Positions 5,676-62,829 of a stretch of 64,000 nt of DNA are shown piece by piece. The position numbers and the translations under genes are program-made. This DNA is from Octopus vulgaris (Eukaryota), in the NCBI GenBank assembly GCA_951406725.2, contig OX597822.1:35216001-35280000 (forward strand), written 5' to 3'. The notes under the pieces are model-generated. The model ran no database searches. It was not told where the DNA came from and worked only from the letters and a program-made list of their open reading frames with translations. The first letter of the stretch is position 1. Every line of letters begins with the position of its first letter.

Positions 5676-5755
<80 letters not shown>

Positions 5756-5941
5756 ATATTAGGGAATAAATCCAAACTTACAGGGAAAAATCAGATTTAG
5801 GATTGAATCCAATTTTATAGTAAAATATTATATTATATTAAATTAAAGACAAAAGCACTATTATGCAAATCAAACAAATAAAGACTTAATCCAATACATA
5901 AATTAATTTATATTATTAAGAAATTTAACAATTATTAATAT

Positions 5942-6005
5942 CCACTACGATCGTTTCATGTCTTCTTTTCATCACATCTTTGAGTAGTAGACATTCTTCA
6001 GGTGG
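5942..6005 (-). ncRNA. Type I hammerhead ribozyme (mirror copy)
   Basis: Exact reverse complement of the 6152-6215 motif. Confidence 0.85.
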
Positions 6006-6151
6006 TTTCAAATATTCTTGGCGAGTTTAAACTGTGTATACTTTTGTGTGCATCCGTGTACGCAGGTGGTTGCATCAAAGTTTATTTATGTGAACATTTC
6101 GTTCTATCATTTCACTTCACCATAGTTTAAACTTGCCAAGAATATTTGAAA

Positions 6152-6215
6152 CCACCTGAAGAATGTCTACTACTCAAAGATGTGATGAAAAGAAGACATG
6201 AAACGATCGTAGTGG
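6152..6215 (+). ncRNA. Type I hammerhead ribozyme
   Basis: CCAC-CUGAAGA-AUGUCU..AGACAU-GAAA-CGAUCG-UA-GUGG: helix I CCAC/GUGG, 6-bp helix II, palindromic helix III, GUA cleavage triplet. Confidence 0.85.
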
Positions 6216-6318
6216 ATATTAATAATTGTTAAATTTCTTAATAATATAAATTAATTTATGTATTGGATTAAGTCTTTATTTGTTTTATTTGCATAATAGT
6301 GGTTTTGTCTCTAATTTA

Positions 6319-6361
<43 letters not shown>

Positions 6362-6981
6362 GAAGGCATGGGTCTGAATAATTTGTATGCATCTCTGTAT
6401 GTGAGCATATAACATGAATGCCTGAGTAGTAAAGAAAGTGAACTTCATAAAATAATAAGAGGTTTAGTTGCATAATTCTGTCAATTATTCAATCATGTTA
6501 TTAAACCATGTAATTATATACCTCGCATTATTTTACAATTTATTTCGTTTACTATTCGCGCTCACACACACACTTACCTCTATATATACACGTATATTTG
6601 TATATGCGTTTTACATGTGTATACTTTTGTGTGCATCCGTGTACGCAGGTGGTTGCATCAAAGTTTATTTATGTGAACATTTCGTTCTATCATTTCACTT
6701 CACCAAGAAACTTATTCTTTCCGATATATCGTGACAGAAGTAGACGTAACTCCGAAAGAGGAAATGTCGAAGTAGATTTTGCACTGATTTCGTTTATGTT
6801 TCGTTTTCCTTTTTTAAAATGTTTCTAAAGTCAGTGTTTATCTCTTTGAAATTCGGGAAAACTAAGCATGTATTGCACTCTCCTGTACGTTCACACGGCT
6901 ATAAATGATATAGTTTCCTAGTTTGGGCTTCTACATAGTATGTGTGTATATATATACACAAACTACAGTAGCATCCACAAA

Positions 6982-7437
6982 CTACAAACTACAGTAGCAT
7001 CCACCCTTAGGGGTTAGCCATATTCAAATGGCAAATATACGTCACGATGTGTTGCTGCTACTGTTTATAACTCGCTCTGAGATTTATCATTGTTTGATTT
7101 CACTTTTTCAATATCAGTGTCAATCGATACTGGAAAAAGTATATGTATTTGTGAAGGGAACCTACTTCTCATCGACAACTATGATTGTCACACGCCGATG
7201 ACGGGTCAATACCCTGAAACTCGAGTCCGTTTGTATCATAAGTTTAAGACGGGAAGGATGGCTTCCCTTTGCAAATACTGATAGGGCACAGAAAGTGTGT
7301 CTATAGCCAGCTGGAGGTGTCCTCCTGGGGCTACAAACTACAGTAGCATCCACCCTTAGGGGTTAGCCATATTCAAATGGCAAATATACGTTACGATGTG
7401 TTGCTGCTACTGTTTATAACTCGCTCTGAGATTTATC

Positions 7438-7440
<3 letters not shown>
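6982..7440 (+). mobile_element. Retrozyme/pLTR-like partial tandem unit (349-bp period)
   Basis: 110-bp direct repeats at 6982-7091 and 7331-7440 (one mismatch seen) enclosing a hammerhead motif; ends in (TA)n. Confidence 0.7.
7192..7230 (+). ncRNA. Type I hammerhead ribozyme, degenerate (U4C)
   Basis: ACG-CCGAUGA-CGGGU-CAAU-ACCCU-GAAA-CUCGAG-UC-CGU. Confidence 0.7.
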
Positions 7441-7531: not shown

Positions 7532-7904
7532 TGGAAGCACTCCGTCGGTTCGACGACGAGGGTTCCGGTTGATCCGATCAACGGAACAGCCTGCTCGTGA
7601 AATTAACGTGCAAGTGGCTGAGCAGTCCACAGACACGTGTACCCTTAACGTACTTCTCGGGGATATTCAGCGTGACACAGAGAGTGACAAGGCCGGCCCT
7701 TTGAAATACAGGTACAACAGAAACAGGAAGTAAGAGAAAGTTGTGGTGAAAGAGTACAGCAGGGATCACCACCATCCCTGCCGGAGCCTCATGGAGCTTT
7801 AGGTGTTTTCGCTCAATAAACACTCACAACGCCCGGTCTGGGAATCGAAACCGTGATCCTACGACCGCGAGTCCGCTGCCCTAACCACTGGGCCATTGCG
7901 CCTC

Positions 7905-7905
<1 letters not shown>
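7532..7905 (-). mobile_element. tRNA-derived SINE family B, full length
   Basis: Head GGAGGCGCAATGGCCCAGTGGTTAGGGCAGCGGACTCGCGG...GTTTCGATTCCC; near-identical copy at 22417-22798. Confidence 0.92.
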
Positions 7906-7974
<69 letters not shown>

Positions 7975-7983
7975 TGTATGTGT

Positions 7984-8201
7984 GGAGGCGCAATGGCCTA
8001 GTGGTTAGGGCAGCGGACTCGCGGTCGCAGGATCGCGGTTTCGATTCCCAGACCGGGCGTTGTGAGTGTTTATTGAGCGAAAACACCTAAAAGCTCCACG
8101 AGGCTCCGGCAAGGGATGGTGGTGATCCCTGCTGTACTCTTTCACCACTCTTTCTCTCACTCTTTCTTCTGATGGTCTGGTCGGTCACGTGATCACGTGA
8201 T
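7984..8201 (+). mobile_element. SINE family B, short form with alternative tail
   Basis: Same head as 7532-7905; tail TCGGTCACGTGATCACGTGAT shared with 48202-48502. Confidence 0.88.
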
Positions 8202-18468: not shown

Positions 18469-19058
18469 TATACACATATACATATACACATACATATATA
18501 CACATATACATATACATACATATACACACACACATATATATACACACATATATATATACAAACATATATACATATATATATATAATATAAAATTGGATTT
18601 AATCCTAAATCTGATTTTTTTCCCTGTAAATTTGGATTTATTCCCTAATATTTATTATTATATATACATATATATACATATATATATCCTTACATATATG
18701 TATATATATATATACATACATATATACACGCGTACGCACACGCACGCATACAAATATATTTGTATGTAATTCATGTACTAATACGAGAATATTTTCATAT
18801 TACATTAAGTAAGAGAAAAACGCTGGAAGAATTGAGTTTCTTCAATTTCGTATGTTTGTAATATATTTATAGTTAAAACTTTTTTATACAAAAATTTTTG
18901 TATGCTGCTTCTCGTAAGGATAGGACACATTCTCAACGGGAGTAGCCGCAACTCGGACACGGACATTTATTAAAGTGTATAATGCATAACGGAGATATGT
19001 GCAGTCATTTACGGGCAGCTTTCGCATATGTTATCAATTTCTTCATATTTTGAAATAA

Positions 19059-25139: not shown

Positions 25140-25648
25140 AAAATATATAGAGACAGACAGACAGGCAGAGACAGAGAGAAAGGGACAAATAGATAAATAG
25201 ACATAATTATATGAATATGTATATAGTAGCATCTTAGCATCTCCCCTCTCTCTCTCCTCCATTATTCATACGCACACATACAAATATATATATATATATT
25301 TATATATATATTTCTGTCGGCTTTCTTCGAGTAACGTGCTTATTGTGATAAATTATATGTTTATGGACAATGTGTCTAGTTTCGGCATATTTGGCATTAG
25401 AAATTTTGGTTTTGCCCTTGTTTATAAGTTGTTTATATATATATATATATTAAATTAGAGATAAAACCACTATTAGGCAAATCAAACAGTGAAAAACATA
25501 AGCCAATACATAAAATTAATTTTAAAAATATAAAAGTTAAAAATAAAAAATTATTTAAATAATTTAAACTTATAAATTTTATATATATATACAAATATAT
25601 AAATATATGTATGTATGTATATTTTTATATTACTTTATTAATTAATTA

Positions 25649-62453: not shown

Positions 62454-62829
62454 TGTATGTATGTATGTATGTATGTATATCTGGTGCAATCGGTTAGCAC
62501 ATTCGGCTGTTAACCAAAAGTTTAGTAGTTCATATCCACCAATGGACGTTGGTTCCATTTTTAAACGGCGATGGATCGGCATGGCCGCAGCTCTGAGCTG
62601 AAACTACTGAAACAAAAAAATATGTGTGTGTGTATACAAGATGGACTCTCCCGTCGAAGACGACGTATAAGCGTTCAGCTTTTGCCAAACGCCCTTCTCA
62701 AATTATTTGTTTATATTGATTAAATGTTTGTACCGCATATTAGCTCACTCTCATCATCACGTCGTTGTTGCCTGAACATCGTCCTGCGCCAAGTGTCGAG
62801 TTATATATGTATATACATATACATATATA

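Follow-up and report, generated by a model that had tools for sequence, protein, structure and literature searches.

A head-to-head Penelope-like insertion in Octopus vulgaris whose centre was probably copied from nearby flanking DNA

An inverted repeat in the Octopus vulgaris genome holds, between its arms, an exact copy of DNA that lies outside it, which raises the question of how that copy came to be there. The foldback sits in the window, the 64,000-nt stretch of DNA analysed here. Comparing the window with itself, we found 208-nt inverted arms at 5829-6036 and 6121-6328 that are 98% complementary, with 4 mismatches, and between them a 90-nt filler whose identity to its donor is exact and can be extended at neither end (Table 1). 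The structure is asymmetric: its left arm extends about 85 nt beyond the right arm, to (ATT)n at about 5742. Searching the genome (2.8 Gb, 227 contigs) with the donor region located the 90-mer at two places, the filler and the donor. The initial annotation had described arms of about 205 bp with canonical hammerheads, a 90-bp spacer identical to DNA 583 bp downstream, and a Penelope-like origin with inverted pLTRs into which a template switch had drawn local flank; a loop that turned out to be part of the family consensus or a high-copy repeat would have spoken against it. The spacer is exactly 90 nt and is neither of these. Both hammerhead cores lie where they had been placed, although they are of the Penelope type rather than canonical, and 583 bp holds as the start-to-start spacing of filler and donor, whereas the donor itself begins about 288 bp past the short arm. 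The Penelope-like origin is borne out by near-complete copies that carry the arm sequence, the inverted pLTR structure by the pairing of one tailed with one short arm, and the local capture by other copies of the foldback, whose loops differ and match their own flanks.

Table 1. Features of the foldback and its immediate surroundings, with positions in the window (PLE, Penelope-like element).
Feature	Positions	Strand	Description
Long (tailed) arm	5742..6033	-	Copies the spliced 5' end of Hydra-clade PLE RNA; begins close to the RNA start and extends to the outer end site
Tail	5742..5828	-	In the long arm only; ends in element-encoded (ATT)n; left edge approximate, in (TA)n tract
Hammerhead, type I, PLE (dimer) type	5942..6005	-	Predicted cut 5946/5945; sequence identical to the + copy
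Filler	6033..6122	+	Identical to 6616-6705 and in direct orientation; overlaps the arm ends by 1 nt and 2 nt
Short arm	6121..6328	+	Second copy of the same RNA region; stops at the inner end site (arm position ~208)
Mini exon 1 of PLE RNA	6121..6143	+	Intronless join to the hammerhead exon starting at 6144
Hammerhead, type I	6152..6215	+	CCAC/GUGG stem I, CUGAAGA, stem II, GAAA, palindromic CGAUCG, GUA site; predicted cut 6211/6212
(TA)n target tract, right side	6319..6359	.	Left side is (CA)n(TA)n, 5676-5741
Filler donor	6616..6705	+	Single-copy host DNA, ~288 bp past the short arm

The arm is a high-copy repeat, with 1644 candidates in the genome and 1707 exact matches to one 32-mer. At loci L121-L123 and L151-L154 it lies directly upstream of an ORF with reverse transcriptase (RT) motifs (FIQIDID, YRDD) and GIY-YIG endonuclease motifs (VVYKC..IYIGST), and near-complete RT/GIY-YIG copies were found; those examined are frameshifted or contain stops. 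Pfam and PDB searches with fragments of the ORF returned no match, and its Atlas neighbours, which we used as leads only, carry RVT_1 on 20% and GIY-YIG on 18% of members. Hydra-clade PLEs have been described as having DKT, RWK, a CxCX5C linker, CxxC and CxH around the endonuclease (EN), no CCHH, an ORF shorter than 3 kb and (TA)n targets (PMC8557442). Reading the octopus ORF by eye against the text and supplement alignment of that study, we found QSDKT, RIKWKA (K for R, giving KWK), the linker CTCRDKSKC, and CYLC and CRH with a C-terminal GIY-YIG, in an ORF of about 2.5 kb and a family that targets (TA)n. The likeness extends to the hammerhead, the inverted 5'-truncated copy and the tail at one end (PMC8557442). 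Judged by these sequence features, the arms represent the 5' end, hammerhead included, of an EN+ Hydra-clade PLE present in high copy number. The protein and the hammerhead both differ from those of Hydra-1_Obim, an octopus family in the supplement of PMC8557442, indicating another family of the clade. Its tail measures about 65-85 nt against the 30-40 bp described for Hydra-clade PLEs, and junction fillers are absent from the text on these elements in PMC8557442. One copy, L151 (1443-3925), has an asparagine-rich stretch between RT and endonuclease that resembles the N-rich inserts described in Adineta Penelopes (PMC3846280).

The complete copies also reveal what kind of template the arms were made from. 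In L151 and L154 the ORF is flanked on both sides by the hammerhead region, and GT donors and an AG acceptor are present, the arrangement by which a pLTR is recognised. Mini exon 1 and its GT donor lie, in L151, about 700 nt upstream of the AG acceptor that adjoins the hammerhead. Both window arms lack this intron and have the mini exon joined straight to the acceptor exon, and therefore copy spliced sense RNA. They stop a few bases before the point at which many arms end, which is likely the RNA start. The tail sequence continues into the ORF in L121-L123.

A tailed arm facing a short arm is the usual form of insertion in this family. Our census took the first 69 sites on contig 1 (L156-L225), of which 67 were analysed and 2 left out, and found an inverted second arm at 43 of the 67, a lower bound given that a few partner arms are only tail fragments; all 43 consist of one tailed and one short arm. 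Inverted, 5'-truncated PLE copies with a one-sided tail have been described (PMC8557442, PMC3846280), and the protein of an anole PLE is able to cut both strands of its target and extend them, starting at two internal positions in the RNA that set the tail (PMC11167929). We further compared arm ends at plain junctions within a set of 46 loci (the 50 listed among 91, minus 4 without anchors), while for the foldback pattern search all 27 loci with a gap of at least 60 among the 91 were examined. The set held 30 plain junctions. The arm with the greater 5' reach was the short one at 19 of them and the long one at 6, with 5 ties; arm extents are approximate (ungapped X-drop against nine natural reference arms). 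The gap was 0, or the overlap 1, at 13 of the 30. At 50 loci, an arm was closer to its own partner than to arms of other loci in 19, tied in 6 and not closer in 25. Four foldbacks (L081, L085, L096 and L136) have a third, tandem arm piece at the junction.

The window foldback is one of 13 with a local filler. We ranked 16 centre segments, chosen by eye from four long-centre foldback pattern searches (controls 3, 3, 0, 0) and from the census, against 79 flank sets, and for 11 of them the own flank came first (the window, L054, L056, L057, L059, L060, L080, L087, L139, L142 and L144). Three of three further segments, from L198, L207 and the solo insertion L190, ranked their own flank first of 67. 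Among the 13 local matches, five carry less weight: three fillers are rich in microsatellite sequence (own against best other score 151/107, 137/117 and 161/127), one measures 18 nt, and one belongs to a host repeat that is dispersed in the genome. L207, which has a third arm, is a complex locus. Fillers measure 18-240 nt. Their donors begin at distances of 19-288 bp from the element, and no piece ends further out than 965 bp (1.9-4.8 kb searched per side). Donors lie on the short-arm side in direct (4) or inverted (3) orientation and on the long-arm side likewise (direct 2, inverted 3), L139 being without a tailed arm; those of L056, L080, L190 and L198 touch the TA target tract. Reading the junctions by eye, we found 1-5 nt in common at most of them, and 14 extra bases in L080.

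Several fillers are 93-98% identical to their donors, a divergence that assembly error would not be expected to give. At L144 (3827-4175), three inverted flank pieces of about 141-160, 68 and 28 nt, from 215-965 bp out, are strung together in scrambled order, and at L060 (4916-5085) the filler retains about 41 nt that are missing from the present donor and so preserves an older state of the flank or another allele. The fillers of the window and of L057, the two with which the whole genome was searched, were found as filler and donor only. The rate of local fillers was 3/43 in the census and 4/46 in the pattern-search set (3/45 without the window), or about 7% of foldbacks. Scaled from 1707 arms, this extrapolates to roughly 750 foldbacks and 50 local-filler events.

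Other centres have other origins. Those of L058 and L082 are TA only and uninformative, those of L143, L187 and L215 are element intron by eye, and the 11-nt centre of L069 had no match. Two more derive from RNA. At L084 (3959-4054) the filler is 96 nt of 18S rRNA, 99% identical, with its sense strand co-oriented with the long arm. At L055 (4860-5188), host exons in spliced form are present in both arms, attached at the splice acceptor of the PLE: an exon of 87 nt, a 100% match to contig 7 where it is flanked by AG..GT, and a second exon-like piece. This suggests exon trapping followed by retrotransposition. A search of 230 kb around the contig 7 exon found no PLE acceptor that could have been the source.

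We put at about 80% the probability that the window foldback arose when the 5' end of a Hydra-clade PLE inserted head to head into (TA)n, its 90-bp centre having been copied from 288 bp away, likely during the joining of two cDNAs. In the mechanism that we propose, the element's GIY-YIG endonuclease would cut both strands of the TA tract, as has been seen in vitro for the anole PLE (PMC11167929). Each 3' end would then prime reverse transcription of the spliced sense RNA, one at the outer site to give the tailed arm and the other at the inner site to give the short arm; the splicing and the tail/short pairing can be read from the arms, and the priming is what we infer from them. Both cDNAs would run toward the RNA 5' end and normally be joined directly, with the few shared or extra bases that are seen at the joint and that would mark the joining of cDNA ends. 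In about 7% of foldbacks, one cDNA end would first prime on a template close by, for which single-stranded flank laid bare by the break is the most likely candidate, then copy 18-240 nt, release and join the other cDNA. The product is likely a dead-end scar, with the hammerheads as passengers of the PLE 5' end, and the single window locus bears no sign of function.

Counted against this explanation is the age of the parts, in that the filler is 100% identical to its donor and the arms differ at 4/208 sites; we estimate the chance of zero differences in 90 bp at about 0.17 if arms and filler are of the same age. Contigs from seven read runs, none of them from the assembled individual, do not cover the filler or its junctions and are uninformative on the locus. 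The donor is bridged unbroken by contigs of runs X1, X2 and X3. They show two differences from the reference, one at 6669 in X2 and X3 and one at 6630 in X3, and the filler agrees with the reference donor at both sites.

The joining step could be the work of the host, through end joining of the Pol theta type, or of the PLE RT, through jumping between templates; both fit. Pol theta insertions are typically shorter than fillers of 90-240 nt. Synthesis-dependent joining of this kind (SD-MMEJ) has been described as using loop-out, snap-back and trans priming, with direct and inverted copies from either side of the break and repeated rounds (PMC5728401), and the octopus fillers share its sequence signature (SD-MMEJ/TMEJ), with a donor near the break, either orientation, short shared bases and repeated rounds. 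They differ from the SD-MMEJ cases of PMC5728401 in scale, the octopus fillers measuring up to 240 nt and their donors lying up to 965 bp away. Their geometry also agrees with R2 PRINT junctions of the snap-back and extra-template kinds (PMC11371274). The 18S rRNA filler, for its part, needs a reverse transcriptase.

Fillers as such are already known at R2 and L1 junctions, and what is new here is a family-wide record of the PLE joining step. The pieces of a twin-primed L1 insertion normally do not overlap. At R2 (PRINT) and L1 junctions the cDNA 3' end is reported to prime nearby DNA or to jump to cellular RNA before joining, and templated genomic insertions and twin priming occur there as well (PMC11371274; PMC11702581, also in its later version; PMC2666801). 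The filler described in those studies links cDNA to target DNA, whereas the octopus PLE filler links two overlapping cDNAs and becomes the loop of a 200-bp hairpin. Our searches of the open-access full-text literature turned up no description of fillers templated by the flank at the inversion junctions of PLEs.

The hammerheads may hold a further clue to the template. The conserved core and three stems of a type I hammerhead are present (CUGAAGA, GAAA, GUA, CCAC/GUGG), and the form is that of PLE hammerheads: stem I has 4 bp, stem II is long and carries an additional 5' A, and stem III is a single base pair capped by a palindromic loop. This palindrome differs between subfamilies (CGATCG or CAATTG) and is predicted to self-pair at -10 kcal/mol. 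At gathering level, Rfam reports no hammerhead in the window: its model RF00163, a scan with which had been proposed in the initial annotation, does align to 6151-6217, at 16.2 bits against a gathering score of 34. An e-value scan of the whole foldback returned only generic long-hairpin miRNA models, far below their cut-offs. A short helix I, a long helix II with an extra 5' base, a palindromic helix III and an intron end beside helix I are shared with the PLE hammerheads described in PMC4209133 and with non-LTR retrozymes (10.64898/2026.07.22.740005). Retrozymes are described as direct tandem repeats with a hammerhead each (10.64898/2026.07.22.740005), whereas the window arms are inverted and give one sense hammerhead per strand, and we rejected a retrozyme identity on that ground. 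PLE hammerheads are thought to act as dimers (PMC4209133); with one sense hammerhead per strand, the two window copies form no dimer in cis.

Of the 108 arm 5' ends in the census, 32 lie between -4 and +11 relative to the predicted cut, whereas the preceding 16 nt hold 4 and the following 16 nt hold 9 (p = 2e-6 and 4e-4, respectively, for an interval picked after seeing the data). Such a pile-up would fit in vivo cleavage with trimming, RT stalling at the hairpin, or joining at AT-rich palindromes, and offers a lead on PLE ribozyme cutting in vivo. We think it possible, at clearly less than even odds, that the telomerase-related PLE RT closes its own double-ended insertion by template jumping to the other cDNA, to exposed flank or to 18S rRNA; that the hammerhead cuts in vivo and sets a second, shorter template class; and that foldbacks both record the joining across the genome and keep generating short local duplications at TA microsatellites, an extrapolated 50 or so in this genome.

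Reverse transcription could also account for the fillers in a different way, if the PLE RT jumped from the RNA 5' end to local nascent RNA or RNA fragments at the break so that all fillers were RNA-templated. The L084 filler is rRNA in sense with its long arm, many filler-bearing arms reach the RNA 5' end, and R2 PRINT junctions are described as jumping to U6 RNA (PMC11371274). However, donors of either orientation start 19-288 bp from the break, whichever side they lie on, and the TA target tract itself is touched by several; 4-5 nt are common to many junctions, as expected for annealing to exposed DNA ends. We consider a purely RNA-templated origin unlikely.

The initial annotation had read the locus as a small sequence-capturing ribozyme hairpin system, whose transcripts would carry the captured piece beside a self-cleavage site. 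In its fuller form this would be a selected or re-mobilised cassette that sets host sequence next to a cleavage site or yields long hairpins whose small RNAs act on neighbouring DNA. The geometry is as it had been described, the cores are intact, stem III is palindromic across subfamilies, and L055 demonstrates that non-element sequence can travel in element RNA. Against a cassette, 40 of the 43 unselected foldbacks have no filler, both fillers searched occur at their own locus only, and the fillers give no sign of selection or re-mobilisation; a Pack-type gene-capturing mobile cassette was rejected on the evidence of those two fillers. Element RNA appears to start at the inner arm end and would thus omit the filler, and the loop, which would not be double-stranded, would give no siRNA. 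The warning in the initial annotation that pairing of the arms might silence the ribozyme agrees with the predicted folds, in which read-through RNA forms one arm-arm duplex (-325.6 kcal/mol) that buries the hammerhead in 208 bp, and in which even the best fold of a single arm is another hairpin. These counts leave the capture system without support, and a functional cassette in any form seems to us very improbable.

We hold it just as improbable that the short arm is a snap-back copy of the long-arm cDNA, or the product of self-priming on antisense RNA (PMC3846280), with the filler arising in the same step. Snap-back on cDNA or nearby DNA has been documented at R2 junctions (PMC11371274), and the AT-rich end of the short arm could anneal to (TA)n. 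Yet a snap-back copy cannot exceed its template or contain sequence 5' of the cDNA end, and the short arm reaches further 5' in 19 of the 30 plain junctions, so that two separately primed cDNAs are the simplest reading; arms spliced in the sense direction are not expected from an antisense template. Least credible of all is an assembly artefact at a palindrome between microsatellites, which would suit the perfect filler/donor identity and a junction that appears in no public contig, but not arms that differ at 4 sites, the same design at twelve other loci with diverged donors, or an L060 filler and donor that later came to differ by 41 nt.

Joining of two separately primed cDNAs bears on how a PLE insertion is finished and how head-to-head repeats originate, an open question on which the in vitro study stops before joining (PMC11167929). 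The octopus insertions resemble the PAc/Poseidon mechanism described there, in which both target strands are cut and extended, two internal RT starts define the tail, and the target is AT-rich. The accessible text of that study leaves the joining open and reports no RNA reads ending at the hammerhead cut (PMC11167929), whereas in the octopus genomic copies the joint itself can be seen, and arm ends are in excess immediately 3' of the cut. Adineta vaga Penelope elements likewise have head-to-head pLTRs and host DNA captured as unique spacers and between solo pLTRs (PMC3846280). As described, the DNA captured there sits ahead of the 3' pLTR or between direct pLTRs, with no link drawn to the flank of the insertion itself, and the inversion was attributed to antisense self-priming, which the spliced octopus arms do not fit (PMC3846280). 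That all 43 foldbacks pair a tailed with a short arm, that the template was spliced and sense, that the longer arm may be either of the two, and that fillers come from flank or rRNA together favour two cDNAs over snap-back or antisense self-priming. The family offers hundreds of young, short and comparable insertions, and its foldbacks make the joining enzyme directly testable.

The window contains further repeats of related form. Remnants of the same PLE family lie at 18566-18687 (tail only) and at 25434-25544 (an older arm). A second local duplication, 6982-7091 and 7331-7440 (110 nt, 99% identical, 349 bp apart), has no PLE arm; its copy at 7331-7440 adjoins a (TA)n tract at 7440 and is a long target duplication or a templated copy, which hints that local copying is not confined to the Hydra-clade PLE of the window. 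Another host repeat, at 7798-8091, forms a head-to-head pair of 147-nt arms (93%) around (TA)n(TATG)n and is possibly a second family that inserts as foldbacks. At 62475-62548, a weak tRNA-like match (33.2 bits, with broken pairs) is probably the head of a SINE.
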